Below, in pieces: positions 24,614 to 60,200 of a DNA stretch of 64,000 nucleotides. Made by a program: the position numbers and the translations under genes. The stretch's first letter is position 1, and the number at the start of each line of letters is the position of its first letter. This DNA comes from Patescibacteria group bacterium. GTDB lineage: Bacteria; Patescibacteriota; Microgenomatia; Levybacterales; UBA12049. The notes under the pieces were generated by a model, which saw nothing but the letters and a program-made list of their open reading frames with translations, ran no database searches and was not told the origin of the DNA. The DNA is taken from positions 15,543 to 79,542 of the forward strand of contig BPJB01000001.1 in the NCBI GenBank assembly GCA_026004395.1, read 5' to 3'.

Positions 24614-26971
24614 ATGTCAGCTGAGGGCTTAATATATCTTTTTTTTGGTATAGCTATTGGCTTTGCGTTATTAGGATTTTTGATTTTAGGATTAGGTTAT
24701 ATTTTTATCTTGTGGATGCGTAATAAAGGCCGTGAGAGTGAGTCTTTGAACTCGGTTTTACTTCAAGTATCTGTTCCGCGTGATAACGAGATTAAAATAG
24801 ATGCAGCAGAACAACTTTTTTCAAGTCTTGCATCACTGAGAAAAGGAGGCAGATTATCTTTCCTTAAACCTCAACCCCATCTTTCATTCGAGATCGTGGG
24901 AATGCCGGGTGATATTCGTTTTTATGTGCACGTTCCCAAGAAATACCAAGATTTTGTGGAAAAACAGATTAATGGAGCATATCCTGATGCTGAAATTGTT
25001 GAAGTGAGTGATCCTGCGGCTCGATCAAAAGAAGGAACTGTTATTGGAGGAGAATACAATATCTTTTCCGAAACAGGCAAAGTAGCTTTTGCATCTCTCA
25101 CATTAAAAGGAGATGATTATAAGCCTATCAAAGTCTTTAAAGATATGCCAGTTGACCCTCTTGCATCTCTGACTTCAATTCTTGCCAAAATGGGAGAAGG
25201 TGAAGGAGCAGCCATTCAATTTCTTATTCAACCAGCTGATTCCAAATGGAAAGAAAGCGGCAAAGAGTATCTTGCCAAAACGAAAAAAAACGAAGCCAAT
25301 CCTGAAACAGCCAAGTATAATGCAGATGCAAAAGAGTTGGAGGCAATAGAAAATAAACTTGGCAAGCCTGGATTTCATACAGTAGTTCGAGTAGTTGTTT
25401 CATCATCAACAAAAGAAGCTGCAGAGGCACATCTATCAAATATAATTAATGCCTTTAGTCAATATGCGGGGGTTAATTCATTTACTAAGAATAAACATTA
25501 CTTTAAAGGATTATTTGTTACAGATTTTATATATCGTTACTTTCCTATGCGGGGACAAACAGCTATTCTCAATAGTGAAGAATTGGCAACTCTTTTTCAT
25601 TTTCCCAATAAGAGTGTAACAACTCCTGGTATACATTGGGTTATCTCCAAGCGTGCTCCAGCTCCTGCAAATATTCCCACTGAGGGACTACATCTTGGTA
25701 AAAGCGTTTTTAGGGGGATTGTACGACCTGTTTTTATTGGTAGAGAGGATAGAAGACGCCATATGTATATTATTGGAAAAACAGGTACAGGTAAAACAGA
25801 GTTTCTCAAGCACATGATTATGCAGGATATTCGAGGTGGTGAAGGAGTTGCGGTTATAGATCCTCATGGAGACCTGATTGAGGATATTCTACAGCTTATG
25901 CCTCCAGAGAGAGCAGAGGATGTAATTCTTTTTGATCCATCGGATGTAGAACAACCTCTTGGATTCAATATGTTAGAGGCACAGACTGAGCAGCAGAAAC
26001 ATTTGGTGACGACTTCAGTCATTGGTCTGATGTATAAATTGTTTGATCCTAATAAGACAGGAATTATTGGTCCTCGCTTTGAGCATGCTGTTCGTAATGC
26101 TATGTTAACTGTGATGTATCAGCCGGGAGCAACTTTTATAGAGGTAGTGCGTGCGCTTACAGACCCATCATTTGTTCAGGAGCTTTTACCCCGAGTGGAG
26201 GATCCTGTCATCAGACGTTACTGGACAGATCAAATTGCCCAAACAAGCGATTTTCATAAATCAGAAGTACTTGACTATATTGTCTCCAAATTTGGTCGCT
26301 TCGTGACAAATAAGATGATTCGCAATATTATCGGTCAATCAGAGAGTGCGTTTAATTTTAGGGAAGCGATGGATACGCAAAAAATTCTTCTTATCAATCT
26401 TTCCAAAGGAAAGATAGGAGAGGAGAACTCAAGTTTCCTGGGTCTTGTGTTAGTGCCAAAAATCTTAGTTGCTGCTATGTCTAGACAAGATATGCCAATG
26501 GAAGATAGGCGAGATTTTTTCCTTTATGTTGATGAGTTTCAGAATTTCGCAACACCTGATTTTGCCCAAATTCTATCAGAGGCTAGAAAGTATCGCTTAA
26601 ATCTTATCGTTGCCAATCAATTTGTTGGACAAATGGAAGAGGAGGTAAAGAATGCTATTTTTGGTAATGTTGGTACATTATGTGCTTTTCGTGTAGGCGT
26701 CACTGATGCCAATTATCTTCAGCATGAGTTCCAGCCAACCTTCACAGAGGCTGATCTGATTAATATTGATAGGTTTAACTGTTATGTAAGAACAATTGTT
26801 GATGGTGAGCCTGTACCACCATTCTCTCTTGACACAACTAAAGATATTGCTGCTGAGAAGGCACTGCGTGATCCACGTGTTGCTGAGCTAGTGAAAGAAC
26901 TCTCTCGTCTCAAATATGGTAGGAACGTCAAGGTTGTAGAAGCAGAAATTACTCAGCGTGCCAAACTATAG
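24614..26971 (+). CDS. conjugative coupling-protein (TraD/VirD4/TraG-family)-like ATPase with an N-terminal TM hairpin
   Basis: N-terminal TM region; Walker A IIGKTGTGKT; Walker B FLYVDEFQNF; ARKYRLNLIVANQ motif. The stop TAG abuts the tRNA. Confidence 0.65.
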   Translation: MSAEGLIYLFFGIAIGFALLGFLILGLGYIFILWMRNKGRESESLNSVLLQVSVPRDNEIKIDAAEQLFSSLASLRKGGRLSFLKPQPHLSFEIVGMPGDIRFYVHVPKKYQDFVEKQINGAYPDAEIVEVSDPAARSKEGTVIGGEYNIFSETGKVAFASLTLKGDDYKPIKVFKDMPVDPLASLTSILAKMGEGEGAAIQFLIQPADSKWKESGKEYLAKTKKNEANPETAKYNADAKELEAIENKLGKPGFHTVVRVVVSSSTKEAAEAHLSNIINAFSQYAGVNSFTKNKHYFKGLFVTDFIYRYFPMRGQTAILNSEELATLFHFPNKSVTTPGIHWVISKRAPAPANIPTEGLHLGKSVFRGIVRPVFIGREDRRRHMYIIGKTGTGKTEFLKHMIMQDIRGGEGVAVIDPHGDLIEDILQLMPPERAEDVILFDPSDVEQPLGFNMLEAQTEQQKHLVTTSVIGLMYKLFDPNKTGIIGPRFEHAVRNAMLTVMYQPGATFIEVVRALTDPSFVQELLPRVEDPVIRRYWTDQIAQTSDFHKSEVLDYIVSKFGRFVTNKMIRNIIGQSESAFNFREAMDTQKILLINLSKGKIGEENSSFLGLVLVPKILVAAMSRQDMPMEDRRDFFLYVDEFQNFATPDFAQILSEARKYRLNLIVANQFVGQMEEEVKNAIFGNVGTLCAFRVGVTDANYLQHEFQPTFTEADLINIDRFNCYVRTIVDGEPVPPFSLDTTKDIAAEKALRDPRVAELVKELSRLKYGRNVKVVEAEITQRAKL

Positions 26972-27043
26972 TGGGCCTGGATGGGATCGAACCATCGACT
27001 TCCATTTTATAAGAATGGCACTCTACCGCTGAGTTACAGGCCC
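26972..27043 (-). tRNA. tRNA-Ile (anticodon UAU)
   Basis: Manual cloverleaf: GGGCCUG/CAGGCCC acceptor, D ACUC/GAGU, anticodon stem CCAUU/AAUGG with loop CUUAUAA, T arm GAUGG-UUCGAUC-CCAUC. No encoded CCA. Confidence 0.75.
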
Positions 27044-43629: not shown

Positions 43630-43704
43630 TCCGCGGTAGCTCAATGGTAGAGCAGGAAGCTGTTAACTTCAAGGTTCTAGGTTCGAGTCCTAGCCGCGGA
43701 GCCA
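43630..43704 (+). tRNA. tRNA-Asn (anticodon GUU), CCA encoded
   Basis: UCCGCGG/CCGCGGA acceptor, D arm GCUCAAUGGUAGAGC, anticodon loop CUGUUAA, T arm CUAGG-UUCGAGU-CCUAG, then GCCA. Confidence 0.85.
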
Positions 43705-44205
43705 AATTGTATGTTCAAAGGAAGCCGCCGACCCCCGCAAGGCGAAGTGGATTTTGATTGTTTCGAGTGAGTAAAGAATTTTAGAAAGAAACCTTTTGGC
43801 AAAAAAGTTTCTTTCAATTCCTTTTGATTTTTTGAGTCTGACAAGAAAAAATTTTAGAGTGTTTGAAATGTTTTCAAAGGAAAATTTAGAGCATACCTCT
43901 GGTAGTTCGTATCCAGCCCGGCACCCCGATTGAAAATCGTTATTTAAACGAAAAACAAGATTTTCGATATAGTTTTTATCAATCGAAATGCGCTCTAAAT
44001 TTTCCAGACAAAAATTTTCCAATCTTTCAGCGGAAATTTGTTTTACCGGGCAAGTTTGCCAATCCTGTCTTAGGGTTGAAGTACAGCGATAGTAATAATA
44101 TCTTTTTAATTTTTTGCCAGTTCTTTTATTGGTAAAACAAGATGTCATTTTAGAACTGCAATTTTCGCATTGGACCAATCCACCGAACAGAAAATTTCTG
44201 TACAT
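43690..44205 (-). pseudogene. large serine recombinase, C-terminal half only (zinc beta-ribbon + coiled coil + tail); catalytic domain absent
   Basis: FLFGGLVQCENCSSKMTSCFTNKRTGKKLKRYYYYRC…CPV matches the recombinase zinc-ribbon domain. No resolvase N-terminus. Its 3' end overlaps the tRNA-Asn 3' end. Confidence 0.65.
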
Positions 44206-44270
44206 AACCTAAGCGAAGAAGATTTAGTAAAGCTCACACACAGAACTGCTTTGCGCATACCACCATTTGT

Positions 44271-44630
44271 TTAGCTTGCATCGTCTATAGTTCTGGCGCG
44301 AAAGTTGATTATTTTTTTGAGTAGGCTAGGGGGGATCGGTTTGTCAGCAGTAAACTGCAGGGTACCTTTTGAACTCCGATACTTAACCAACTTTGGTCCG
44401 ACCGCATTGATCATTTCGTCGGAGGCTGGATATATGCTCATATGTTTGCTATGGGCAGCATAGTATATCAAAATCTTTTTGTGGTATTTGAAAGCGGGTA
44501 TACCATAGCTTATAATTTCCTCTACTTCTGGAAGCTGAGATTTTACTAAATTCCGAATCTTGATTAGCTCATCGCGATGTGACTCTGGCAAATCCTGTAA
44601 GTAGCCATCAACTGTTTGATGTTTTTTCAT
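44271..44630 (-). CDS. DUF1801 (YdhG-like) domain protein
   Basis: 119 aa; …ISYGIPAFKYHKKILIYYAAHSKHMSIYP… is typical of DUF1801. Confidence 0.7.
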   Translation of the reverse strand: MKKHQTVDGYLQDLPESHRDELIKIRNLVKSQLPEVEEIISYGIPAFKYHKKILIYYAAHSKHMSIYPASDEMINAVGPKLVKYRSSKGTLQFTADKPIPPSLLKKIINFRARTIDDAS

Positions 44631-44668
44631 AACCCAATTATATCAAATAGTAGCGATGCTGTATAGAT

Positions 44669-44812
44669 ATGACTAAAGAGGAGGTACTAGGTGGTACAGT
44701 GCACGAGCTGCCCACCGACCTGCGCAAAGCCTTGGCTGCCAATAAGGCGGTCTTAGCTAAATGGCAGAGCCTTACACCCCTGGCCCGCAACGAGTGGATT
44801 TGAGCTTTTAGT
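44669..44812 (+). pseudogene. YdeI/OmpD-associated-family N-terminal fragment inside a GC-rich (~58% GC) foreign segment
   Basis: 47-aa ORF MTKEEVLGGTVHELPTDLRKALAANKAVLAKWQSLTPLARNEWI* carrying the YdeI motif; it stops where YdeI proteins continue. Local GC is far above the window mean. Confidence 0.45.
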
Positions 44813-44990
44813 CAAACGAAATTAAGGAGTTCCTTGTTGTTGCGCGCGAATGGGCAGGGTGGGTCAAACGCAACTGTATTGGCGGCGCATTTCGCAAAGC
44901 GAAATACGAAATTCGGCGGCGGAAAAGCGAGGGTGGGCAAAAATTCCTTCCCCCAACCCCCTTCCTTTTTGCCCGCCCGAGCGTAATTTA

Positions 44991-45311
44991 TCAAAAATCC
45001 GGTTGCTGATTTTCCTTGGAAAAAGTTCGGATTTCGTTCAGAGTTCGGAGCCAGAGTTGACGAGAGGCTAAATTGGCTATCTTGTCAAAGGGGTTTAGAA
45101 AGTGGTATCGGACTTTTTTACCTTCTAACTCTAAGTTCTGAAGTGTTATTTTCAAAAGTAGTCGTTTTTCGTGAACTTCAGAACTCAAAAACAAATCATA
45201 AGCCTGATTAGCAAGTGTTAAAAGGTAGTTTGCTGTTAAATAATAGTTGTCTTCAGCTTTCTTAAGATTCGCTAGTTTAGTAAAATTTTTCATTAAAAAA
45301 TGCTTTGTCAA
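44991..45311 (-). pseudogene. serine-recombinase C-terminal-tail-like remnant ORF (repeat copy 1)
   Basis: …KRLLLKITLQNLELEGKKVRYHFLNPFDKIANLASRQLW… This sequence recurs in ORF 52865..53092 and in two further loci. Confidence 0.45.
45050..45186. repeat. ~135-bp repeat family, copy 1 (3' end of a recombinase-like gene)
   Basis: Read directly. Related copies at 52986..53108, 57682..57812 and a degenerate copy at 59931..59973. Confidence 0.8.
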
Positions 45312-45377
45312 ATCAATTTGTATTGTATTATACTATAAAGAAAAATAATTAAATATCTTTAATCAAAGTATTTAATT

Positions 45378-45773: not shown

Positions 45774-47564
45774 TTATACCTCTTTTGTAACCAAAACTTC
45801 TTCTCCTAACATATCAATTATTTTGACTGCCACTTTGGTTGGCTTTTCACTTATTTCAAGCTCATATTCGCCTTTTACTAAATCGCTCTGTCTTTCGGGA
45901 ACATCCGAGAAACCAATCTTGAATACTTCACCGTCGTAATCCGTATCAACCAGCACTACATCGATCATCGACCTGAAATCTGGAATTTTCTTCTGCAAGA
46001 GTCCTGGTTCAAGCTCCAAGCGCTTAATGATCGTAGGGGAAATAAAGGCTAAAATTTTAATCTTTACTTTGTCTTTGCCTATCCGTTTAATTTCCACTTC
46101 TGCTTTTGATGGTTCGTAACTCACAAAGTTTTTGTCTTTCAGGTCAAAGACAATAAACTGACGCATGCGTTTCTTGCTTCTGGTATCTTTATAGGGTTGC
46201 TTTTTATTCCATTCCTCAACCCAACCGTCTACCTTTGTCTCCCTGCCCAGTGAGATGACCACTACATCTCTATCCTCGTCTGGGCGCTTATTAAGCTCAT
46301 CAACGATTAGCTGCAGGTCAAGTAGCGTTAAGGGGTGATTGAAATCTATAATTTTGACCAGCTCGCCACTATCCCGCAGACCGTCAAAGAAAGTGTCTGT
46401 TTTAGTTTTAGTAATTCCGTATTGCTGGATAGCCAATTCTTTAGCTTCAGTCTTCAAGATTCTTAAATCGTAGTTATTAACCTTGTAAATTGCGAAAGTG
46501 GGGTATTTTGTTTCTTTTTGATCTTTGATGATTTTTTGTAATCTTTTACTTGTTACTTGAATTGCTCCCTTATTAACATCAACCCCAATCCACCGCCTAC
46601 CCAATTTATGTGCTACCGCACAGGTCGTTCCCGAACCAACAAAACAGTCTAAAACTAAGTCGTTTTCGTCAGATGACCCTTTAATAACTTTCTCTAATAA
46701 AGCCTCTGGTTTTTGTGTAGCATAATTAGTTCTTTCTATGGCTTGAGAATTAATGATTGCAATTTCCCAAACATCTTCTGGAAGCCTTCCTAATGGATTA
46801 ACCTTCACAATTCTACCAAAAGAGGTTGTGCCAGATTCTGCTTGTTTTATTGTGCCTTCTTTGTAAGGAGTCCTTACTAAATCGATGTTAAATTTATAAC
46901 TGCTTTTATTCTTACAATAGAGGAGAATTGTATCATGCTTATGTAAATATTCCTTTTTAACCGAGCCTGATGGGTCTTTATAATGCCATACAATCTCATT
47001 TATAAGATTTTCTTCTCCAAATATTTCATCCATTAAAACTTTAATGTAATGAACCATCCTGTAATCCAAGTGGATATAAATACTGCCTGTTTCTGCCAGT
47101 AATTCCTTCAGCAAAATTAACCGCTCATACATAAACTGGAAGTATTCATCCCGTTTCCAAATATCTTCATACATCGTTTGTTGAATTATCGATTCACTGT
47201 CTTCTTCGATCCTGCCCAAATCTTTTAAGCCCCGCAGTTCAACTTTTCTCATGTAGTCTTTGTTGCTGGCAAACGGAGGATCGATATAAATCAGGTCAAC
47301 CTTGCCTCTGAAGCCAAGTTCCAAAAGTGTTGCTAAGACTTCTTTATTATCTCCATGAAACAGAAGATTGTGCCAATTTTTTTCAAGCTCGCTGAATTTA
47401 GGGGTTTCTGGGAATTTATCTTCCTTCTGGGGGTCAAAGACTTCAATTAGTTGTGTAGGGAAGCCTGTGACATATTCTAACGGGTGTTTATTAACCCAAT
47501 GGAGTAGAGGTCTGCCTTTTGGTGTTTCAACTTTTATTTTTTTGTTTGATTTATCATCTGTCAT
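45774..47564 (-). CDS. mod: Type III restriction-modification N6-adenine DNA methyltransferase (Mod)
   Basis: Motif IV IYIDPPF, motif [12 protein letters not shown]; 596 aa; start overlaps the res stop by 4 nt. Confidence 0.85.
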
Positions 47565-47566
47565 AT

Positions 47567-50152
47567 TTATTTTTTGTGTTGGTAAATCCAGTTAAAAACT
47601 GGCATAACTTTACCAAATACCGACTCTCCTTCCTCTAAAAGCAGGAGTTCATACTTTATTTTATCAGGATTTATCGCTTCCAGCTCTTGCATCTCTTTTT
47701 CAGCTTCCTTAATCCTGTATTTTGGCGCTTTTACCTCCACGATTAAAGATCTACCATCTTTCTTGCGAATTAAAAAGTCGGGGGTATAACTGTGCCAGTC
47801 TCCCTTGTCGTCTTTGTATTCAAAGATTAAATCGGTTTTAGCGGGATCGTTAATTGCGCCTGTGTAATAAATGTCCTCAACATTATCGGGGTCTTCACCA
47901 AGTTTAATAAGCATACTCTCAAAAAACTCTCGTTCATACTCTGAGTCAAAATTGTAAGGGTCGTAATGAAAGCCAAAGAGCGGTAGTTGTCCAGCCTTTG
48001 CTTTGTAGTCCTTCAGCTCCAGCACATATTTCTTCAGAGAGGTTTTGTTAACCCTAATGTGGGTCACATAGGAGGTTTTGCCGTCAACAGTTTCTTCTTC
48101 AAACCCTTTCTGCTTGATAAGAGCCAGTGCTTCTTCGACTGTTTCATTGACCACTTTGTAGCGCATGGTTTGTTTTTCTATTTGGGTGCGGATAAGTTCC
48201 AGTTCAAACGCCCCAATTTCTCCGTCTGGGTATAAGTTTTGGAGCAGTTTATAAGTTTTTAGCGAGTCTAAGCGGTAAGCATGAGCCAAAACTACGGCAG
48301 CTTGGAACAGGTCGATTTTCCTGTCTGTTACCGCTCCCTTTTTAGTTCCCACTTCAACCAGCACCCCTTTTCTCTGGGCTTTGGACATGGAATAAATGGT
48401 CTTTTCAAAGGATTTGACCGTTTCTTTGCCTGGTTTATCGATTTTTAGACACTCTTGCGCTTTCAAGTCTTCTGGGACTATCTTTTGGATGAGCTTTTTG
48501 ATAAGCAAAGGCGGCAGTTCAATCTTTCTAAGAGTTACTTTAACTGTTACCGTGTCCGTAGAAACCCTGTTGAGATCATCCAACCCCTCACCAAAGGTTT
48601 CTTGCAACTGCCGATCAAGAATGGAGACATTGTCTTTTGAGAGGTAAATCTTGGCTTTTTTGGTGTTGCCATTGACTTGTCTTAAACATCGACTGGCAGC
48701 TTGCAAAACAAAGTTATTGCTTGAATTAAGTTTCCTTGCCAGAGCGGTAGCGAATAAAGATAAGCAGTTCCACCCTTCTGTGCCTTTGTTGACGAGCAGG
48801 AAGACTCGGTAGGGCAGTTTGGGATCGTTAATGCGGTTGTCAAAAAGGTCTTTAATCTCATCAGTTGACTTGTTATGCACTGGCAGTACAACTGATGGGT
48901 CAATTTTTAATGAGATGAGAGTTTGCTCAACAATAGGCTTAGCTTTTTCTAGATCATCGACCTGAGGGAAGTAGATAGCCAGCTTGGCATATTCGCCGCT
49001 CTCAATTTGAACATCTTTGTATTCTTGAAAAAAGTCTTTAACTACATCAACAATGAAATCATGATCAGATACATCGGAATAGGCAATGATGTTGCCTCTT
49101 ACTTCTTTTAAGATTCCATCCTCAATACCTTGTGATAGTCCATACCAATAAATAACATCTCGCAGAAGCTGTCTTTGGTAATAGGGTGTGCCTGTGGTGT
49201 TAACTACCGCTAAAAGATTGGTTTTCTCGGCAATGTAGTTGATTGTCTGTCTGACCCTCTTCAGGTCGCTTGCCAGCTCCTGTCCGTAGGTGTGATGGGC
49301 TTCATCTGAGAAGACTGCCAAGTGAGGGAGCGAGGTAATGGTTTGCAACCTTAAATTAGCCACCAGCTCTTTTGCTTCTTCAATTCCCAGCCTCAACTGC
49401 CCTGACAGGAAAGATTTGGGGATACTGTTCTTTTGAAGTCTTATTTTTTCAGTGTTGGTGACAATAACATTAAAGGAGCTGCCTCGGATAACGGGAATGT
49501 CTTTCTCGCCATCCCTGGTGTAGGTGAATTTAACATTGGTGATAAAAGATTTATAGAAACGAGGGGGAAGTATTTTGTCGTATGGTGTGTCAGAGATTTC
49601 TCTCAAAGCACCCAGTATGGTCTTGCCAGGTGCAAATACCAGGGCATTTTTGATAAATATGCCATCTTCTTCCTGATATTCCAAAGCCATCGCAAACTCG
49701 GTAGCGATGATGGAAGCTATAAGGATTGTCTTACCTGCTCCCATTGCCAATGCCAGGATATAACTGGGGTATGAGAGAGTGAGTGTTTCTCTTAATGCTT
49801 CAAGCCTGTATTTCTTAACAAATACATCGTTGGTTCTGACTTTATCAATAATGAGATCTAATCCACCTCCTGCTAATAAGAGATCTGTCAAATCTTCCTC
49901 TGACAAGCAGATGCCGAGTGCCTTTAATAGTTCTTTTCCTTGAAAGTATTCCTTGTAAAGATTGAAGATGTTTGGTGTGTTTTTGACTAAGCGTAAATAC
50001 CAGTAAGTTTCTAACGCCTCAAATTGTGCCTTTCTTAGAAAGTCATTCTGGTTATGCTGGAAAATGGTGGCAATAGCAGGATAAGAGGAAGGATAATCTT
50101 GCTGTCTCCAATTAGCAACATCTAATTTCAATTTTTGATAAAGATTGATCAT
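47567..50152 (-). CDS. res: Type III restriction enzyme Res subunit (SF2 helicase + PD-(D/E)xK nuclease)
   Basis: Walker [13 protein letters not shown] box FSDEAHH, C-terminal PDFLI…VEVK nuclease motif; 861 aa. Confidence 0.85.
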
Positions 50153-52864: not shown

Positions 52865-53092
52865 TTACAATACAGCAAAGGCAGGCTTGGGTTGGCTAAT
52901 TCCTAAGTTTTCAAACGCAATTTTAAGGTCGTTTAGGCTTATATTAAACTCTAATCTATCGTTGCAGAATAAGTCTTTTAGGGGGAGCCAGAGTTGACGA
53001 GAGGCTAAATTGAATATATTGTCAAAGGGATTTATCCAGTTAAATCGGACTTTTTTACCTTTTAGTTCCAAGTTCTGAAGTGTTAAATTCAA
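52865..53092 (-). pseudogene. serine-recombinase C-terminal-tail-like remnant (repeat copy 2)
   Basis: MNLTLQNLELKGKKVRFNWINPFDNIFNLASRQLW… DNA repeat spans 52986..53108. Confidence 0.45.
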
Positions 53093-53128
53093 AAGTAGCC
53101 GTTTTTCATACTTGTTCTTAGTAATCCT

Positions 53129-53596
53129 TCAATTTATTAATTTACCTAGAGTTTTTAGCACTTTTGTTTCTCTATTTTCTTCCTTTGGCAAGTAACCAAT
53201 TAAACCGCTTTCTATGGCTTGATTACAAGCTATTGGAGCTTTTCTGCTTATTTTTAGAATTTCCGAACCAGGATTTCCTTGGAGGATTCTCATTTGATCA
53301 TGCTCGCTCATTCTTTTTGAGGAAGGAAGTATATTTTGGTATGATTTACAAAACAAATAGCAGTAAAGCCAATTTCTCTCCAGATTGCTTCTAATTCGTC
53401 TACCCTCAAAATACTTGGTAAGCATACTTGGTAAGCACAAACCTTTTTTTATGTCTTTCAAGAGAGATTTTTCATTCTCATCCATTGGTTCTCTTTCTAG
53501 GAACATGTCGTTTAGTACCACTCTTCCTGATGATTTAAGAACCCGATAAATTTCTTCCATAACTGAGTTTGTCATAAGAGTGAACATAACTCTCAC
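53129..53596 (-). pseudogene. class I SAM-dependent methyltransferase, C-terminal fragment
   Basis: Begins …MEEIYRVLKSSGRVVLNDMF, resembling methyltransferase motif III/post-II. No SAM-binding GxGxG N-terminus. Confidence 0.4.
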
Positions 53597-53854: not shown

Positions 53855-55678
53855 TTATATAATCTCTATCATAAAATCTTTTGCCTCGGGAAAGGGAGCA
53901 TATCGTGGTGACTGCAATGAGGACATTAACTCAATTGTTGGCAATAATGGGAATTTGTTTCTAATTCTTCGTCCTCTGCTTTCTTGTTGTCTACGTTTTG
54001 TTACATGTTCCCATGTGTTTCTTCCATCAATCATTCTTTCTTCAAATACATGCACCAATGGTTTAATAAGAACAGGATTATCAAAACCACCAGAAATCAT
54101 TGATATACCCGTAGCATAACTTGGCATAAAGGCAGAAACTACTGCCTGTATTTCTGGATAATTGTTTTTTATGTGATTGAATGTAAGTGAAAACATGCTA
54201 CTACTTGTATTTCCAGGAGCGCCAGGGCGACTATAAAGTCTAGTTAGGTCATAGCAATAACAAGGGTTATAGCCTTGTATCAATAAAACATTTTGTTTGT
54301 ACGGACGATCAATCTTCTCCAATGCAAGAACTGAAAATGGTAAATCCTCCCCTACTATGTACAATCCGAAAGCAATATCAGCTCGGGGAGTATGAATATA
54401 ATGTAAATCTTGATGGAATTGCTTTGCAAATTCTGGATTAATTTCTCGGAATGCAAGTGGCACTAGTCCGGCTGTCGCTGTTACACCTTCTTCCTGTACT
54501 GCAAAGATTGCGTTTCCTCTTTTTTGTATCACCCATCCAGGTTCAGCAAACATTCCTGTACGGGTCAATATTCTTTCAACTGGAAGTGAGCTATTTTGCA
54601 ATCTTTGTTTGATGATTAGGTATTGTTCTTCAATCGTTGCAGCAAGTATCTTAGGATTTATCCTGAACTGTTGGATAAATTGTGCATCAAGATTCAAGAT
54701 ATTTCGCCAGTCAACATAAGCGCTATGATCCCGTAAGTAATTATTAAGTTGTGAGCCGTTAACAAAAACATCGGAAACTTCATAGGTTGTAAGGCGGAAA
54801 AGCGTTTGATATTTTAAATCTTGTGGATCACATAAAATATTATTTTTTTGGATATATTCGTCTACTGCAGCTGCAACCTGTTCTCGGGCATGTGACATTA
54901 GTGCATCTTTTGGCCAATTTACTAATCGGAACTTTGGAACCATAATGATTTCTCCCTTTGCTAAGGCGGTAGCTAATTCTCTACGCCTTCTTTCAATCTG
55001 TCCTTGTCTTACTACCTCTCTCAACACTCCAAAACGTATAGCTCCATGTTTCATTGTGGTAATTGCATGATCTGCCTTTTTCTTCATATTTACATTGTTA
55101 ACAACGTTAATTCCTTGAAATAGTATTCTTGGCCCGTTAACAGGGATTTGAGTGGGATTGTTTTCTTCTATAGCCAATTGAGTTTCTTGCTTAGCAAAGT
55201 CTTTTATCCACTGAAGCACTTTTCCTAATACCATAGAATCTCCTTCTAATTGTTGAATATCAGTGGTGAGTTGATCCTCGTATCTAACAGAATCAGCAAT
55301 AATATCTTGGTCAGTGCCATCTTGTAATCTTACATGTATTCGTAGTTCATTACCGTCACCTTTCTTAAATCTCATTCGTCCAAGTATTTCTTCTACCGTT
55401 TTCCCTCTTGCCTGTTTATTTTTTCTTCCAGCAGGCATTGGGATATGTTCTCTGCGCATAAGCCATGCCACCGCCCGAAGCACTTCATAAAATCGTACTG
55501 GAGTAAAACCTAAATCTCGGATCTGCTCAAATACATCTCGTAATTCTGGTTCTGTTAATCCATATGTGGTGAGTGATATATTAAATCTTCTCAATTGATC
55601 GAGCTTGGCTGATTTATCAAGTCTTCCAAAACTTTCACGAATTGGTTGATGAATAATTGGTGCTTCTTGTTTGCTCAT
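53855..55678 (-). CDS. large hypothetical protein (607 aa), no confidently recognisable domain
   Basis: ORF track; divergent from the adk/Ham1 pair. The C-terminal half has a Cys-containing segment (GYNPCYCYDLTRLYSRPGAPGNTSS). Confidence 0.5.
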   Translation of the reverse strand: MSKQEAPIIHQPIRESFGRLDKSAKLDQLRRFNISLTTYGLTEPELRDVFEQIRDLGFTPVRFYEVLRAVAWLMRREHIPMPAGRKNKQARGKTVEEILGRMRFKKGDGNELRIHVRLQDGTDQDIIADSVRYEDQLTTDIQQLEGDSMVLGKVLQWIKDFAKQETQLAIEENNPTQIPVNGPRILFQGINVVNNVNMKKKADHAITTMKHGAIRFGVLREVVRQGQIERRRRELATALAKGEIIMVPKFRLVNWPKDALMSHAREQVAAAVDEYIQKNNILCDPQDLKYQTLFRLTTYEVSDVFVNGSQLNNYLRDHSAYVDWRNILNLDAQFIQQFRINPKILAATIEEQYLIIKQRLQNSSLPVERILTRTGMFAEPGWVIQKRGNAIFAVQEEGVTATAGLVPLAFREINPEFAKQFHQDLHYIHTPRADIAFGLYIVGEDLPFSVLALEKIDRPYKQNVLLIQGYNPCYCYDLTRLYSRPGAPGNTSSSMFSLTFNHIKNNYPEIQAVVSAFMPSYATGISMISGGFDNPVLIKPLVHVFEERMIDGRNTWEHVTKRRQQESRGRRIRNKFPLLPTIELMSSLQSPRYAPFPEAKDFMIEII

Positions 55679-55770
55679 AAAAACACTTCAAACCTAAGCT
55701 GAAGTGTGGTATAATTATAGGATAACAAGGTGTAAAAATCAATTTTAACTAGACTCATGTTTCGTAAACT

Positions 55771-56388
55771 ATGAGGTATATAGAAAGATATAGACCAAAA
55801 GAAGGAGAAGGACATAATAAGATACTTGTTATAACTGGCGTTCCCGGATCAGGAAAAGATTTTCTTTTGTCGGAAGCAGTAAAACAAGGTATAATCCCTT
55901 CTTCAGTTAGGATGTTCAGCTTCGGAGAAGAATTATTTGCTTATTTAAAAACAATCCATCCACAGATACAGATAAGAGACGACGTTCGAACATTATTAAC
56001 TCAAGATGATGTTTGGCAAGGGGTAATTGGAGTAATAGACAAATTAATACAAGCACAACCAGCAATACTTAATACCCATGTTGTTTATCGGCAAAGAGAA
56101 AGCCTTATTACAAATCCCAATGTTGATAAGAGAATGCACCCCGCAGGTTATTTATTCGTATGGAGTGAACCTAATCAAATAGCAGAATGGCGAGCACGCG
56201 ACATATCGAGGGGGAGACCGCCTGAATCAATAGATGACATCGCATTGCATCAAGATATTGCATTGGAAGTTGTATCTGTGGTGGCAAGACATACAGGTGC
56301 ATGTCTCAAAACTGTTTGGAATCGAACTGATAATGTTGCAGATAATTTAGCTCTAATACAGGAACGAGCAAGAGAACTCACCCCTTAA
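55771..56388 (+). CDS. archaeal-type adenylate kinase (AdkA-like P-loop nucleotide kinase)
   Basis: ILVITGVPGSGKDF P-loop. Alignable along its length to archaeal AdkA (…FSFGEELF…, …NTH…, …IALHQD…). Confidence 0.65.
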   Translation: MRYIERYRPKEGEGHNKILVITGVPGSGKDFLLSEAVKQGIIPSSVRMFSFGEELFAYLKTIHPQIQIRDDVRTLLTQDDVWQGVIGVIDKLIQAQPAILNTHVVYRQRESLITNPNVDKRMHPAGYLFVWSEPNQIAEWRARDISRGRPPESIDDIALHQDIALEVVSVVARHTGACLKTVWNRTDNVADNLALIQERARELTP

Positions 56389-56418
56389 TTTCCCACCATT
56401 TTTCAGTATAATATTACA

Positions 56419-56976
56419 ATGAAGAAAATTTATTTTGTTACTACAAATCAGTATAAGTTCGAAAAATTCACTCAAGCGATTAGCATTCCAGGTATTGAAA
56501 TTGAACAATTATCAGAAGAAACACCGGAAATACAAGCACCTAATAACCGTCAAATTGCAGAATTCTCGGCCTGGTTTACTGCTCAGAAAATTAATCTTCC
56601 TGTTATAACAGAAGATGTTGGCTTGTACATACAAACTTTAAGAGGTTTCCCCGGTCCATACCTTAATCAGATTGAAAAATGGATAGAGACAGATGGTTTC
56701 TTGCAGCTTCTACTTAACAAAAAAGATCGATCAGCATATTGGGAATACGCAATTTCCTACTGTGAACCTAGACAAACTCCTAAAACATTTTATACACATC
56801 AAAAGGGAAGCATAGCAAAAGAGGCAAAAGGAAACAGCGGTTGGTATATGGATAAAATTTTTATTCCAGAAGGACAAGTAAAAACTATTTCAGAATTATT
56901 AGATAACAGAGAGTATGTTAGAAATGATGACCATTATCTGCAATTAAAAGAATATTTATTAAAACTGGGAAAATAA
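56419..56976 (+). CDS. Ham1/ITPA-family non-canonical purine NTP pyrophosphatase (eukaryote/archaea-like)
   Basis: YFVTTNQYKFEKF, ITEDVGLYIQTLRGFPGPY, DKSAYW, GWYMDKIFIPEGQVKTISEL. These track human ITPA/Ham1 more closely than bacterial RdgB. Confidence 0.78.
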   Translation: MKKIYFVTTNQYKFEKFTQAISIPGIEIEQLSEETPEIQAPNNRQIAEFSAWFTAQKINLPVITEDVGLYIQTLRGFPGPYLNQIEKWIETDGFLQLLLNKKDRSAYWEYAISYCEPRQTPKTFYTHQKGSIAKEAKGNSGWYMDKIFIPEGQVKTISELLDNREYVRNDDHYLQLKEYLLKLGK

Positions 56977-57113
56977 TCTTTCCTACTTCCCTACGTGTCA
57001 TATTACGATACATTGTATAGAGAGGTTATGTTTTTGTTTTAGATATTCGGCTGGTGTCTGATAACCCGACTGTCTTAATCTTACCTTGAGGTTATAGTTT
57101 ATCAATTAATCAG

Positions 57114-57272
57114 TTAGTTTCTCTTTAAGGTTCTTGACATCACCAAAGAGGTAGCATCTCTGAAGACCTTGGCTTTTATCTTACCGTTGAATCTCTCAAC
57201 CATACCATTTGTCCCCGCCTGCGTCCTTCCGAATCGGAGGACTTCGAGGTGGGCAGGCAGGGGTGTCTGAAT
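57114..57272 (-). pseudogene. DDE (rve) transposase C-terminal remnant
   Basis: Minus-strand translation …LRFGRTQAGTNGMVERFNGKIKAKVFRDATSLVMSRTLKRN*. No upstream body. Confidence 0.5.
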
Positions 57273-57681
57273 TTAATAGTTTCGTGTTTTATCTTTTCTT
57301 TCTGGCAGAGTTTATCAAAGGGATGAGTCTTCTTTGTTTTTTATTCTTGGGTAAGAAATTGTGTCAACCAAGAAACTCCAAACTTACGAGCTAAAACACT
57401 TATGGGTAGCAAGCCTTGACTGAATCTCCTTCCTTATGAGATAGTTAGCTCTGGCATTCTGGTGTAATCTCTGCAACATAGTTGTTAAGACATTATATCC
57501 TTAACAACGTATCGTAATCATACAGTTATTTATATTTTAAAATAATTTTTTATACAGTATCTTAATAAATAAAATATAGTGGAATCAGAGGTGGGATAAT
57601 TTATGCGGTAGCATACATTCTCAAATCAGGGAGATGTAAATATGCTCATTTTGCTGTTGTATAATAGTTCTAACGCTGTTT

Positions 57682-57812
57682 ACGATGTGGAGCCAGGCTT
57701 AACAAGAGGCTAAATTGGCTATCTTGTCAAAAGGATTTATCCAGTCATATCGGGCTATTTTGCCCTTTATCTATAAGTTCTGAAGTGTCATCTTCAAAAG
57801 TAGCCGTTTTTC
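57682..57812. repeat. ~135-bp repeat family, copy 3 (no associated ORF)
   Basis: gccaggcttaacaagaggctaaattggctatcttgtcaaaagg…aagttctgaagtgtcatcttcaaaagtagccgtttttcgtgg. Confidence 0.75.
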
Positions 57813-58030
57813 GTGGACTTTAAGAAATCTCCAAGAGTTTCACTGTGTTTAAAATCAGGTTTTCAGTTATTTTTTTTAGTTTGAGAGTACTTTGGATAAA
57901 TTTAATTAATTTTCAATTCAATATTCTCTTTCTAAAATCAGACAAAAGTTTTTAAGATTGAATGATGAGATCTAGGTAAAGTAATAGCGCTATAATAACT
58001 ACCTTTTGTTATATAATATTATTTAATAGT

Positions 58031-58726
58031 ATGTATGAAAGAAAAAGGATGGATAATAAATTATTTTCATCCCCTTTTGCAAATAAAGAAGACTTATGGA
58101 AAGAAGGATTAGATAATGTTCTTAAGAGATATTTATCTTTTCCTGAGAATAAGATAATAGAGACGGATTTTGCTTATAATGTAGTTTTTAATAATCCCCG
58201 AGCTCTGGATATTGTAAATGTAGAGAATGATGAGAGATATTTAATCTACCTATCAACAGAGTCAGATAAAACTTCATATGACATGCTTAGAACATCCAAG
58301 ATACCTCTTTTAGGAGATAGACAAGAGACATATGGATTAACTGTTATCCGTATTCCTCTGCATACAAAAGGGCTTGGAAGTATAGTTTATCCTGAACAAT
58401 ATTTTACAGGGCAAAGATATTTAGGAGCTTTAGAAATTATGCGTGAATTAGGAAAATATATAGGTCAGATATATAACAGAACAAAACATGTCCCTAAAAC
58501 TCTTGACTTAAAAAAATTTGCGATTGTAGGTGGTGAGACAGGATTAATTCGTATGGTTCCCCCATATGAATTATCAAGTGATTTTAATGAATTAAATTTT
58601 GTTAGTAGTCTTGCTCAAAGTTTAAAAGAATGCGATCCAGTAAATAGCGATAAGCACGATATTCATGTTCAGGTTTTTTACAGGAGTTTGAAAGATGTTA
58701 TAAACAAAGATGTAAAATCTGAATAG
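58031..58726 (+). CDS. hypothetical protein (first gene of a two-gene operon)
   Basis: ORF track; 10-nt gap to the next ORF. Confidence 0.4.
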   Translation: MYERKRMDNKLFSSPFANKEDLWKEGLDNVLKRYLSFPENKIIETDFAYNVVFNNPRALDIVNVENDERYLIYLSTESDKTSYDMLRTSKIPLLGDRQETYGLTVIRIPLHTKGLGSIVYPEQYFTGQRYLGALEIMRELGKYIGQIYNRTKHVPKTLDLKKFAIVGGETGLIRMVPPYELSSDFNELNFVSSLAQSLKECDPVNSDKHDIHVQVFYRSLKDVINKDVKSE

Positions 58727-58735
58727 AATATTTAT

Positions 58736-59866
58736 TTGCATTACTGTTATATGTTAGAACTTTCGCGAAGTATTAATAATGAAAAAATTAAAACATATTA
58801 TGACAATGAGAGCAATCAGCATCCGGTCAATACACTTAATCATTGGATTAAAGCTTTTAACAATTCTAGAAGGTCTGCGGTAAGTGTTGATGCATTAAGC
58901 TTCAGTAATAATTACGATCCTAATCACGCAATTGAAGAATTTTATTATCATCTGAGCAGCAGGCAAGGATTAGAGCTAATTATACCCCGATATCCAAATA
59001 GAAGAGAATTATTAAGTTTTTCTATGCTTGATGATTCTGATTTGTTAATAAGAGGCGGAAGTGCTCATGGCGTATTCTTTGTACAGGGCAATACTCAGGA
59101 GGTTAGAAGTGGCAAAATAAAGAAGTCTAAAATTGATTTAGCAGTTAAGCAATTTTCTGATCCTCAGAAGGCAATGCGTGAGTTTCTAATTACTTTAGTG
59201 GTTAGACAGCGCATGATAGATTTTGTGAAATACCTAAAGAATTATGGAGAAGTATCAATCAATGGTTGTCTTTTTACACCTATACAACCAATAGCTCTTT
59301 TTGTTGATAAAAAACAGGGATATCTCTTGACGCGAGCAAACAGAATGATTACATCCTTAGACCAAGAGCCATGGTCGCAATATTGGTCAGCAACAGATGA
59401 AGATAAAAAGCGAATACAGAATAGATTTGCTAAAATTTCTATGCTCCTTGCCAATTTACATAGTAATGGTATTTTTCATGGAGATGCACAGATTAAAAAT
59501 TTTGTAGTTTCACCGCATGGATTTGTAGGAGCTATTGACTGGGAAGCTGCTTATTTGGCACCTGTGGATTTTGTGGAGATTCCTTCAGATATATTAATAG
59601 GGAAGGCAACATCAGACCTACAAATATTTTATAAATCTATTTCCGAAGATGATAAAAATTTGTCAAGATTAGAGTTAATAACGGGTAGTCAAGAACAAAA
59701 GTGGGAGTTGTTTAGTAATCTAGTTATCGATCCATACATGACTCAATGGCTGGAAATCAGTGAAAAACACAACTCTCATGGCAGCAAGAGTGAAGCGTTA
59801 TTTAATTGGGAGAATTTTTATGAACAACTACAAAAAGAACTCAAGCGATATATTACAGCTAAGTAA
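58736..59866 (+). CDS. protein-kinase-like fold protein (Kdo/WaaP/APH-like)
   Basis: G-rich loop IRGGSAHGVFFV, Lys in DLAVKQF, catalytic-loop-like LHSNGIFHGDAQIKNFVV, and AIDWE. Confidence 0.5.
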   Translation: MHYCYMLELSRSINNEKIKTYYDNESNQHPVNTLNHWIKAFNNSRRSAVSVDALSFSNNYDPNHAIEEFYYHLSSRQGLELIIPRYPNRRELLSFSMLDDSDLLIRGGSAHGVFFVQGNTQEVRSGKIKKSKIDLAVKQFSDPQKAMREFLITLVVRQRMIDFVKYLKNYGEVSINGCLFTPIQPIALFVDKKQGYLLTRANRMITSLDQEPWSQYWSATDEDKKRIQNRFAKISMLLANLHSNGIFHGDAQIKNFVVSPHGFVGAIDWEAAYLAPVDFVEIPSDILIGKATSDLQIFYKSISEDDKNLSRLELITGSQEQKWELFSNLVIDPYMTQWLEISEKHNSHGSKSEALFNWENFYEQLQKELKRYITAK

Positions 59867-59930
59867 TCACCAAATAGGTTTAGTAATTTTAACAGGATTT
59901 ATTAGAAATCACATCGAATTTTTGTCTTTT

Positions 59931-59973
59931 AGCTTCAAATTCAGAAGTGAGTTTTCAAAAAGAGTTGTTTTTC
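59931..59973. repeat. degenerate 4th copy of the recombinase-tail repeat
   Basis: cttcaaattcagaagtgagttttcaaaaagagttgtttttc; minus-strand translation …TLFENSLLNLKLKDKN…. Confidence 0.5.
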
Positions 59974-60200
59974 TTAGATTGTAGTGTAATTGATTATACG
60001 ATAAACATCTCACTCTTTATTTGGGTGTTATAAAGTTAAATCAATATACTACTATACAATGAAGATTTTGCATTCTGAATCAATGAGATATATATTTAGA
60101 AAAAGGTAGCATTAGGACGAATTTCAATTTAAAACATATATTAGCATCTAAAATCCCTCTCACTAAGAGGGATTTTAGATAGTTAATTAGTAGACAACGT

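Follow-up and report, generated by a model that had tools for sequence, protein, structure and literature searches.

A candidate two-gene module of Patescibacteria encoding a predicted atypical protein-kinase-like phosphotransferase and a linked partner protein

[quoted passage not shown] Bud32 works mainly as an ATPase, and it works with dedicated partner subunits. A partnership of another kind is found in the pseudokinase-kinase pairs STRAD-LKB1 and Fam20A-Fam20C, in which an inactive paralogue activates or scaffolds the active kinase, and in LanKC the kinase domain is part of a lyase-kinase-cyclase fusion of ~850 aa. Literature searches for a described kinase-partner pair in CPR/Patescibacteria, bacteria with tiny genomes and a large share of conserved genes without known function, returned nothing relevant, and a preprint of 2026 that describes new PKL families from the oral microbiome mentions neither Saccharibacteria nor the family described below. 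Here we analyze two adjacent genes, A and B, located in a 64,000-nucleotide stretch of DNA (the window) from a genome of the Dojkabacteria.

Both genes are located on the plus strand, with the boundaries given in an earlier note on this DNA. Gene A (KatS3mg083_586; 58031..58726) encodes 231 aa when read from the ATG at 58031, as in the list of open reading frames, or 225 aa from the ATG at 58049 that the NCBI annotation uses, and it ends with a TAG codon at 58724-58726. Gene B (KatS3mg083_587; 58736..59866) would code for an atypical protein-kinase-like phosphotransferase of 376 aa from a TTG at 58736; its true start is likely the ATG at 58751 (371 aa), which is backed by the NCBI annotation and by homology, the residues M1 and E3 aligning with the 'MTE..' of relatives. 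The gap between the two genes, previously given as 10 nt, measures 9 nt to the TTG and 24 nt to the homology-supported ATG. The product of gene A is soluble (pI 5.9, without a transmembrane segment), and so is that of gene B, which consists of a single domain of 371 aa. The GC content of gene A (31%) and that of gene B (34.5%) are lower than the 39-40% of the core genes, and when the surroundings of the pair in the window were scanned for promoters and terminators, the outcome was no better than with shuffled sequence.

The motifs of gene B, numbered here on the 371-aa protein and counted in a family alignment of 94 homologues, suggest a PKL enzyme with an intact active site. The putative ATP-anchoring lysine of strand beta3, K133 in A-V-K133-Q-F (59141..59155, plus strand), is present in 94/94 sequences, and its acidic partner in alphaC would be E144, a position occupied by E in 75/94 and by D in 19/94, so that every member has the Lys-acid pair that is expected of the fold. 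The catalytic loop H243-G-D245-A-Q-I-K249-N250 (59477..59500, plus strand) shows D245, N250 and a K/R at position 249 in 94/94 members, H243 in 81/94 and Q247 in 78/94. Eighteen residues after D245 comes D263 of the predicted metal-binding D-x-E motif I-D263-W-E265 (59534..59545, plus strand), the equivalent of DFG, whose D263 and E265 are also found in 94/94; PKL proteins are expected to carry an H-x-D-x(4)-N loop followed by a metal-binding Asp about 13-20 residues on. These results agree with the VAIK-like Lys, the HGD…N loop and the IDWE motif described in the earlier note, and the catalytic set proved to be invariant among the homologues. The glycine-rich loop of that description is present as R-G-G-S-A-H (residues 101-106; 59051..59068, plus strand), but its glycines are not conserved (G102 42/94, G103 13/94), and the conserved nucleotide-loop motif of the family is S-A-H-x-V-x-F, with S104 and H106 each in 92/94. 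Because the next long helix of the structural model (279-297) follows IDWE after only about 14 residues, B appears to have no activation segment. Judged from sequence, the agreement of the B motifs with those of the superfamily is far beyond chance.

The AF2 model of B is poor (pLDDT 54, query-normalised TM only 0.23-0.31). Nevertheless, Foldseek against the PDB gave 275 matches at E <= 1e-3, and the 50 of these 275 that were listed are all kinase-fold proteins (prob 0.97-1.0) and include PRPK/Bud32 and WaaP (6dfl), which points to a bilobal kinase fold on this low-confidence model, in keeping with the kinase-like assignment of the earlier note. In agreement with a kinase fold, the B profile retrieved only kinases among the PDB sequences; the best match was a LanKC-like kinase domain (E 5e-6; 8w7a and related entries), and MAPK, ULK1 and TP53RK could be aligned from the N-lobe through the DFG equivalent. 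Taken together, the motifs and the model indicate that B is a member of the PKL superfamily.

Regarding the family within this superfamily, profile models were used for the classification as APH, Kdo or HipA-like kinase that the earlier note suggested. APH (PF01636) is the sole Pfam family that exceeds its gathering score with the window protein (25.0 versus 23.2 bits), and it does so only over profile positions 132-202 of 239; Kdo (PF06293) reaches 20.1 bits over the catalytic segment, below its gathering score of 21.3, and no HipA family was found among the Pfam matches at E <= 1. Pkinase is at 13.5 bits, against 31.7, and the GxGxxG motif and activation segment of Hanks-type kinases are lacking. 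Of the Pfam models (E <= 0.01), Kdo matches 55 of the 94 members (best 3.3e-10), Pkinase 17 and APH 15, and the NCBIfam models Bud32, LanKC and KdkA match 66 (best 2.3e-9), 57 and 56, respectively. The window protein scores 21.8 bits with Bud32 (TIGR03724), whose cut-off is 125, and 21.8 bits with LanKC, through the catalytic loop alone, whose cut-off is 575, which places it outside both families. The APH, Kdo, Bud32 and LanKC models all match the catalytic-loop segment of B, and the Kdo matches in relatives would indicate relatedness rather than membership. Hence, B convincingly reaches the threshold of no known family, its weak best matches being Bud32, Kdo kinase and the LanKC domain, and the family for which it stands by sequence is uncharacterised; this family comprises about 347 clusters at 50% identity, and its 347 representatives (E <= 1e-3) are without exception single-domain proteins of about 300-430 aa.

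The APH match raises the question of whether B resembles APH and choline kinases in acting on a small molecule, be it an antibiotic, a sugar, a lipid head group or a metabolite, with A unrelated or accessory. Small-molecule kinases of the superfamily (MTR, choline and aminoglycoside kinases) typically have a D-x-E motif and no activation loop, the Kdo/WaaP type prevails among the Pfam matches, and glycosyltransferases, a Mur ligase, and MreBCD or Wzy flank the genes in some loci. These envelope-gene neighbours are nevertheless inconsistent across loci, the APH alignment covers 71 of the 239 profile positions in a family of which 15/94 members match, Choline_kinase of Pfam gave no match, and the PDB profile matches are protein kinases, LanKC and Bud32. 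A small-molecule kinase is thus an unlikely reading of B, and the strict pairing with A and the conservation in minimal genomes argue in addition against antibiotic resistance.

The Bud32 matches suggest a different activity, in which B, like Bud32 or RIO, would act as an ATPase switch within a complex for RNA modification or ribosome biogenesis, and A would be an analogue of a binding subunit such as Cgi121. Bud32 is the NCBIfam model that matches most members, TP53RK/PRPK is present in both the PDB-profile and the Foldseek matches, the C-lobe of B is small and devoid of an activation loop, and some loci contain translation-related neighbours (CysS, LepA, S20, ArgRS). However, the window protein is far under the Bud32 cut-off, none of the neighbourhoods examined has a called Kae1/TsaD-family gene adjoining the pair, no A member matches Pfam CGI-121, and the family departs from Bud32/RIO in its D-x-E motif and in the K/R that precedes the Asn of the catalytic loop. 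We therefore consider this role quite improbable, although the fact that Bud32, one of the closest relatives, is mainly an ATPase means that a strict kinase label for B is not guaranteed.

Gene A had been described as an orphan, which turned out to be incorrect. No known domain was recognized in its product, since Pfam, NCBIfam, PADLOC, PHROG and PDB-sequence searches were all without match, and the members of its family likewise lack a Pfam or PDB-sequence match. A word-indexed search with gene A returned gene A alone, and a profile search added only one further homologue; the homologues were identified by reading the loci of gene B relatives, and the closest of them show 30-36% identity to A with pairwise E values of 1e-25 to 9e-30. 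A search with a 17-sequence alignment for related loci yielded 7 from genomes and 6 from metagenomes. The context of gene B was examined at ~19 distinct loci, which come from Daviesbacteria, Levybacteria, Saccharibacteria and other MAGs and represent ~19 of the ~347 representative clusters of B; in every one of them an ORF of 172-246 aa on the same strand abuts or overlaps gene B at its upstream side. The upstream ORFs are homologous to A by HMM (E 1e-36 to 7e-4, held-out tests included), and that of locus L015 is joined to the A family via L018 (E 1e-43). Thus, A and B are strictly linked in the loci examined, in agreement with the earlier view that they form a unit. The A stop and the B start often overlap by a few bases in the relatives, and the window copy has no such overlap. 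Although linkage is no proof of binding, the two products may well interact physically.

The neighbourhoods of the relatives also place the pair among core genes. The flanking genes are CysS/RecR, LepA-S20/RNase H-holA, MreBCD, glycosyltransferases, a Mur ligase or groES-groEL, and since they vary among loci, the pair is the sole constant. Neither lyase, cyclase and precursor-peptide genes nor LPS-core genes were found in the neighbourhoods examined. The relatives carry a convergent gene of 137-152 aa downstream of B, a counterpart of which is absent from the window. In six loci the pair is situated just upstream of groES-groEL; co-transcription with these genes was considered and rejected, because every spacer between B and groES contains a promoter-like TTGACA of its own together with one or two CIRCE operators.

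The structural model of A raised the question of whether this protein is a catalytically dead kinase-fold paralogue of B, the two forming a split pseudokinase-kinase heterodimer in which A activates B allosterically or acts as a scaffold. The secondary-structure elements of the model (beta-beta-alpha-beta-alpha-beta-beta-alpha-alpha) occur in the same order as those of a minimal kinase core, and the top 50 Foldseek PDB matches are all kinase-fold proteins (p38, WNG1, the Pan3 pseudokinase, RIO1, APH(2''), Bud32 and LYR4 among them). The sole hhalign alignment between the two profiles places the long helix and the 'P..L.L..LA' stretch of A over alphaE and the catalytic loop of B, and the invariant 'PP' of A falls on the 'DW' of IDWE. 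On the other hand, the model was built from a 2-sequence alignment and has low confidence (pLDDT 50), the best Foldseek match has an E value of 0.025 (prob <= 0.23) in a database where kinases are abundant, no A member matches Pfam or a PDB sequence, and three versions of the hhalign comparison gave P values of 0.0075-0.015 and probabilities of 3-5%, none of them significant. Homology between A and B was accordingly set aside, a P of about 0.01 being no evidence of homology. A pseudokinase role for A is therefore possible but doubtful; it would refine, and is compatible with, the two-gene module that we favour, and it is a lead only. If A were a dead kinase, its catalytic Asp would be replaced by Thr or a variable residue and its DFG Asp by an invariant Pro. 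A bolder version, which we regard as unlikely, would see in the pair a split pseudokinase-kinase heterodimer present across the CPR, A having lost all catalytic residues to become the obligate allosteric subunit of B in a lineage-specific signalling or quality-control device of ultra-small bacteria, which Saccharibacteria-like lineages would keep beside the HrcA-controlled groES-groEL operon.

The surroundings of the pair in the window are of a different nature. With an nhmmer model built from copies 1-3, the recombinase-tail repeat was located at 45031-45198 and 52971-53137 (copies 1 and 2) and at 57673..57841 (copy 3), all with E < 1e-47, and copy 3 reads on the minus strand as a decayed recombinase C-terminal tail with in-frame stops. 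Copy 4 (59891..59975; model positions 58-143, E 5.7e-6), which follows closely after gene B, is shorter and degraded; the bracketing of the pair by copies 3 and 4 that the earlier note reported is therefore real, and the pair sits in a variable region of the window genome. The minus-strand ORF over copy 1 (44994-45332) shows 36% identity (E 4e-3) to a 'recombinase family protein' encoded on a Legionella plasmid, which is the single weak match of the repeat peptide; phage and Pfam searches with this peptide gave no match, and it does not resemble the truncated recombinase nearby.

Such surroundings are what would be expected if the pair were mobile-element cargo with a conflict function, i.e. 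a toxin-antitoxin system, an anti-phage defence kinase or an effector. An IS-transposase remnant precedes the pair, the region begins at a tRNA-Asn, where a truncated serine recombinase is located, and also contains a Mom-like gene and a type III restriction-modification system, the GC content is below that of the core genes, and the nearest homologue is only 36% identical. Nevertheless, core genes surround the pair in ~18 other loci, the association with recombinase, transposase or phage genes is confined to the window genome among the loci examined, and no relative was present in the 2.9 million viral contigs of IMG/VR. PADLOC recognized nothing in A and only STK_OB in B (12.9 bits, E 0.009, catalytic loop), neither HipA_C nor a defence model identifies B as a HipA-like toxin or defence kinase, and the 225-aa A product has no HTH or antitoxin-like domain of the kind that a small DNA-binding antitoxin would provide. 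A conflict function is thus highly improbable, and the description of the pair as cargo of a mobile module is not supported as a general property. The antibiotic or small-molecule, toxin and effector kinases that had been proposed are likewise not supported, given an APH match restricted to a segment and to fewer members than those of Kdo and Bud32, the lack of HipA and the lack of a meaningful PADLOC match. The missing stop/start overlap, the low GC content and the recombinase-tail flanks suggest, however, that a horizontally acquired accessory role in the window genome is possible.

All of these data are best accommodated, with fair confidence, by a two-gene housekeeping module conserved in CPR/Patescibacteria that consists of an active atypical kinase and a dedicated non-catalytic partner. 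According to this explanation, B would be an active soluble PKL enzyme of Bud32/Kdo/RIO-like type whose C-lobe is small and which lacks an activation loop. In this enzyme, K133, held by E144, would place the ATP phosphates, N250, D263 and E265 would bind Mg2+, and D245 would serve as catalytic base; the family-specific K/R at D+4 may bring a positive charge to the gamma-phosphate/acceptor site. This chemistry is taken from the standard mechanism of the fold, and B is accordingly predicted to be catalytically active. Gene A would be expressed in step with B, and its product is most likely a regulatory or adaptor subunit that binds B, or the substrate of B. The copy in the window genome is divergent, and the variable region around it contains many remnants of recombinase genes and IS elements. 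Because the pair recurs together across many CPR bacteria, it looks like a housekeeping function of reduced genomes and not like a resistance, toxin or defence gene, and we infer its cellular role on this basis. On its own, B is another uncharacterised family in a very large superfamily. The pair, which Dojkabacteria, Microgenomates (Daviesbacteria, Levybacteria) and Saccharibacteria have all kept, is a concrete candidate, accessible to testing, for a function in regulation or biosynthesis that is specific to the lineage, and the false lead of a mobile-element gene for antibiotic resistance or a toxin has been removed.

Comparison with known systems reveals partial likeness in each case. With APH and choline kinases B shares the HGDxxxxN catalytic loop and the D-x-E metal motif, but its family lacks an antibiotic-resistance context, and minimal genomes conserve it along with the gene of a partner. 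With the class III/IV lanthionine synthetases LanKC/LanL it has in common the stretch '...H.D....N......IDWE.A', although B is a stand-alone protein of ~340 aa. The Kdo/WaaP kinases are close in that PF06293 is the top Pfam family of the members, WaaP (6dfl) is among the Foldseek matches and some neighbours are glycosyltransferases; nevertheless, the matches cover mainly the catalytic segment, the B family is found in CPR bacteria, and the Kdo/WaaP kinases are not known to have an obligate A-like partner. STRAD-LKB1 and Fam20A-Fam20C would follow the same logic as A-B if A were a dead kinase fold, and they are eukaryotic pairs rather than a two-gene bacterial operon. Bud32/PRPK and RIO resemble B in their small atypical PKL domain with the features listed at the outset, and Bud32 also in its reliance on dedicated partner subunits. 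In contrast, B scores about 100 bits under the Bud32 cut-off, it has no Kae1/TsaD neighbour, and A bears no detectable similarity to Cgi121. What distinguishes the B family from Bud32/RIO is a set of elements of its own, namely S-A-H-x-V-x-F, D-x-Q-x-[KR]-N, I-D-W-E, 'LDxxxW' and an invariant C-terminal Tyr.

The forward strand of the window carries, as the earlier note had stated, two adjacent open reading frames: gene A (58031..58726, 231 aa; KatS3mg083_586, annotated by NCBI as 225 aa from 58049) and gene B (58736..59866, 376 aa from a TTG codon), whose product is identical to KatS3mg083_587 of a Candidatus Dojkabacteria MAG (CPR/Patescibacteria), annotated by NCBI as 371 aa from ATG 58751. 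The latter start is supported because the 'MTE..' of the relatives is in register with the 'MLE..' of B, and the A-B spacer is therefore 24 nt (9 nt with the TTG start). By its fold and its active site, the gene B protein is a kinase. In an alignment of 94 homologues (numbering of the 371-aa form), K133, D245, N250, D263, and E265 are each invariant (94/94), as are K/R249 and Y329 (94/94 each); position 144 is E or D in 94/94, and S104 and H106 are each found in 92/94. The glycine-rich loop proposed previously is present as 'RGGSAH', but its two glycines are not conserved across the family, in which the nucleotide-loop motif kept is S-A-H-x-V-x-F. An AF2 model built from a 4-sequence alignment was poor (pLDDT 54.3, pTM 0.54); when it was compared with the PDB by Foldseek, 275 hits were obtained at E <= 1e-3, and the best 50 of them were all kinase-fold, including PRPK/Bud32 (7sza) and WaaP (6dfl). 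Because the catalytic residues are invariant and the listed matches of this model are all kinase-fold, the fold prediction and residue conservation on which the earlier note had made its kinase interpretation depend were both found, and the kinase-like fold class with a complete catalytic set is established. Compared with its three closest homologues, B has a longer N terminus and an insertion of ~19 residues following the alphaC helix, 'IDFVKYLKNYGEVSINGCL' (window 59211-59270, residues ~155-175).

None of the known families fits gene B convincingly. Searched alone, B gave weak Pfam and NCBIfam matches limited to the catalytic segment, namely Pfam APH at 25.0 bits (gathering score 23.2) over positions 132-202 only of a 239-position profile, Pfam Kdo at 20.1 bits (gathering score 21.3), and NCBIfam LanKC, Bud32, and KdkA at E values of 5e-5 to 1e-3. 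A word-indexed search returned three homologues only (30-36% identical), whereas, when 1.84 billion cluster representatives were searched exhaustively with a profile, 347 had E <= 1e-3 and 170 had E <= 1e-10. The full-length hits are ~300-430 aa, and a few hits are fragments. Across the 94 members, the Pfam matches were divided among Kdo (55), Pkinase (17), APH (15), AceK (5), and RIO1 (2), and the NCBIfam matches (Bud32 66, LanKC 57, KdkA 56) were all far under the cut-offs. The reading of B as an antibiotic or toxin kinase is not supported. The PHROG and PADLOC matches are catalytic-loop noise. Within the protein-kinase-like superfamily, we assign gene B to an uncharacterised family of its own, nearest to the Bud32/Kdo/RIO-like atypical kinases.

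Gene A can no longer be regarded as an orphan. Every locus with a gene B relative (about 19 distinct loci) has a same-strand gene directly upstream of the kinase gene, abutting or overlapping it, and this gene is homologous to A in about 19/19. In the three closest loci it encodes 216-226 aa and shares 30-36% identity with A, at pairwise E values of 1e-25 to 9e-30. A-family HMMs built with growing depth recognised the upstream ORFs of loci L007, L008, L009, L010, L011, L013, L016, L017, L019, L020, L022, and L024 from other genomes or metagenomes; a held-out test gave E values of 7e-4 for L018 and 0.016 for L012, and the L015 ORF is 37% identical to its L018 counterpart (E 1e-43). The genetic linkage of A and B is strict, with stop/start overlap in relatives. 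The kinase frame of L011 (5860-7110) is broken just past IDFEK and the ORF of L010 (5836-6910) stops early; neither is mended by translation table 25, so frameshifts, pseudogenes, or assembly errors are possible explanations.

The A family had no match in Pfam, NCBIfam, PADLOC, PHROG, or PDB sequences, its invariant positions are two prolines and one leucine only, and its alignment contains no conserved charged residue hinting at catalysis; both A and B are predicted to be soluble. The simplest reading of A is a partner without catalysis of its own that regulates B, serves as its adaptor, or is its substrate. That A is itself a dead kinase fold is an attractive but unproven lead: the secondary-structure order of its model is collinear with a minimal kinase, the best 50 Foldseek hits of this model are all kinase folds, though at E >= 0.025, and the sole hhalign alignment of A with B places the long helix of A, and the 'P..L.L..LA...IR.VPP' after it, onto alphaE, the catalytic loop, and IDWE of B, though at P about 0.01.

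The named hosts of the pair are Daviesbacteria, Levybacteria, and Saccharibacteria, besides which there are 'bacterium' MAGs. Its neighbours differ among loci, the pair being the sole constant: CysS and RecR/YbaB in Daviesbacteria, GT4 and GT2 glycosyltransferases in L008 and L009, LepA-S20 and RNase H-holA in L010, MreBCD/MreB and Wzy in L017, and, in L012, L013, L015, L016, L018, and L019, a DDAH-like gene or Mur ligase upstream and groES-groEL downstream. The earlier view of the pair as mobile cargo is not supported: in the ~18 loci other than that of the window its neighbours are core genes, and no relative was found among IMG/VR viral contigs. The groES-groEL adjacency in six loci is conserved synteny; a single operon with A-B was rejected because every B-groES spacer has its own CIRCE (HrcA operator) inverted repeats, single or tandem (L012 7155; L013 6099, 6129; L015 5160; L016 3559, 3589; L018 2184; L019 3161, 3190), which in these CPR loci show 1-3 mismatches to TTAGCACTC-N9-GAGTGCTAA. 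A TTGACA-type promoter was present wherever a spacer was read. The homologue nearest to B, at 36% identity, lies on contig CAZXEW010000080.1 (L001/L006), which also carries RecR, YbaB, and a 23S-IVP protein and comes from a MAG with the label 'uncultured Gammaproteobacteria'; since the pair is otherwise CPR-restricted, this contig may be mis-binned.

Core genome (RNR, Mur ligase, TGT, GuaA, DnaG, RpoD) makes up the left side of the window. It is followed by a variable region with, in order, tRNA-Asn, a truncated serine recombinase, type III R-M, a Mom-like gene and its P-loop kinase and Ham1 ITPase neighbours, an IS-transposase remnant, and A-B. A TrwB/VirD4-type coupling protein gene (24614-27043, 785 aa; TrwB_AAD_bind, TraG-D_C) ends at the exact start of an opposite-strand tRNA-Ile(TAT); in bacteria, it is unusual for a tRNA-Ile to have the anticodon UAU. 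The 3' end of tRNA-Asn (43630-43704) is overlapped by the recombinase fragment, which is on the minus strand (43690-44205) and has Zn_ribbon_recom as its only domain. A DUF1801 gene and then copy 1 of the repeat come next, and this segment (43630-45200) resembles the border of an integration hotspot in which several integrases have decayed. The type III pair (45774-50152, minus strand) consists of Mod (N6_N4_Mtase, 4e-57) and Res (861 aa; ResIII helicase, with a TnsA-like endonuclease domain at the C terminus). The interval between the second and third repeat copies encodes a protein of 607 aa that ends in a Mom-like domain (Pfam Mom 7e-7; PHROG 'Mom-like DNA modification protein'). Its gene is divergent to adjoining genes for a P-loop protein of AAA_17/adenylate-kinase-like type and a Ham1/RdgB XTP/dITP pyrophosphatase (53855-56976 for all three); together they may form a DNA-modification plus nucleotide-handling module. 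Between Ham1 and copy 3 lies a C-terminal remnant, 'GMVERFNGKIKAKVFRDATSLVMSRTLKRN*' (~57100-57215, minus strand, with stops in all frames around), of what we take to be an rve-type IS transposase.

The repeat copies (132-170 nt) are at 45031-45198, 52971-53137, and 57673-57841, with a degraded one at 59891-59975; the last two flank A-B, which is thus correctly described as bracketed by recombinase-tail repeats. Read on the minus strand, the repeat gives the decayed peptide 'EKRLLLKITLQNLELEGKKVRYHFLNPFDKIANLAS', and the ORF spanning copy 1 has a weak match to a 'recombinase family protein' from a plasmid. The draft assembly of this organism at NCBI has a 13-kb contig (L026, BPIX01000012.1) that breaks at ~52080 of the window, inside this repeat-rich island, which is consistent with repeats troubling assembly. 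Given the flanking repeats, the low GC (A 31%, B 34.5% vs 39-40% in core genes), and a nearest homologue that is 36% identical, this A-B copy may have been horizontally acquired, a property of this genome and not of the module.

By the established mechanism of the fold, the K133-E144 pair would position ATP, N250, D263, and E265 would bind Mg2+, and D245 would act as catalytic base; the invariant K/R at D+4, where tyrosine kinases have the Arg of their 'AAR' catalytic-loop motif, would point towards the gamma-phosphate and acceptor. The best match of the family profile among PDB sequences was a LanKC-like kinase domain (5e-6), which shares '...IDWE.A' with the gene B family, followed by ordinary protein kinases and TP53RK. 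In the B model, the next long helix comes only ~14 residues after IDWE and there is no activation segment, a feature common to the Bud32, RIO, Kdo, and APH-type atypical kinases. A-B is a single, divergent copy of a kinase-plus-partner module that is spread across the CPR and lies within this well-known superfamily.
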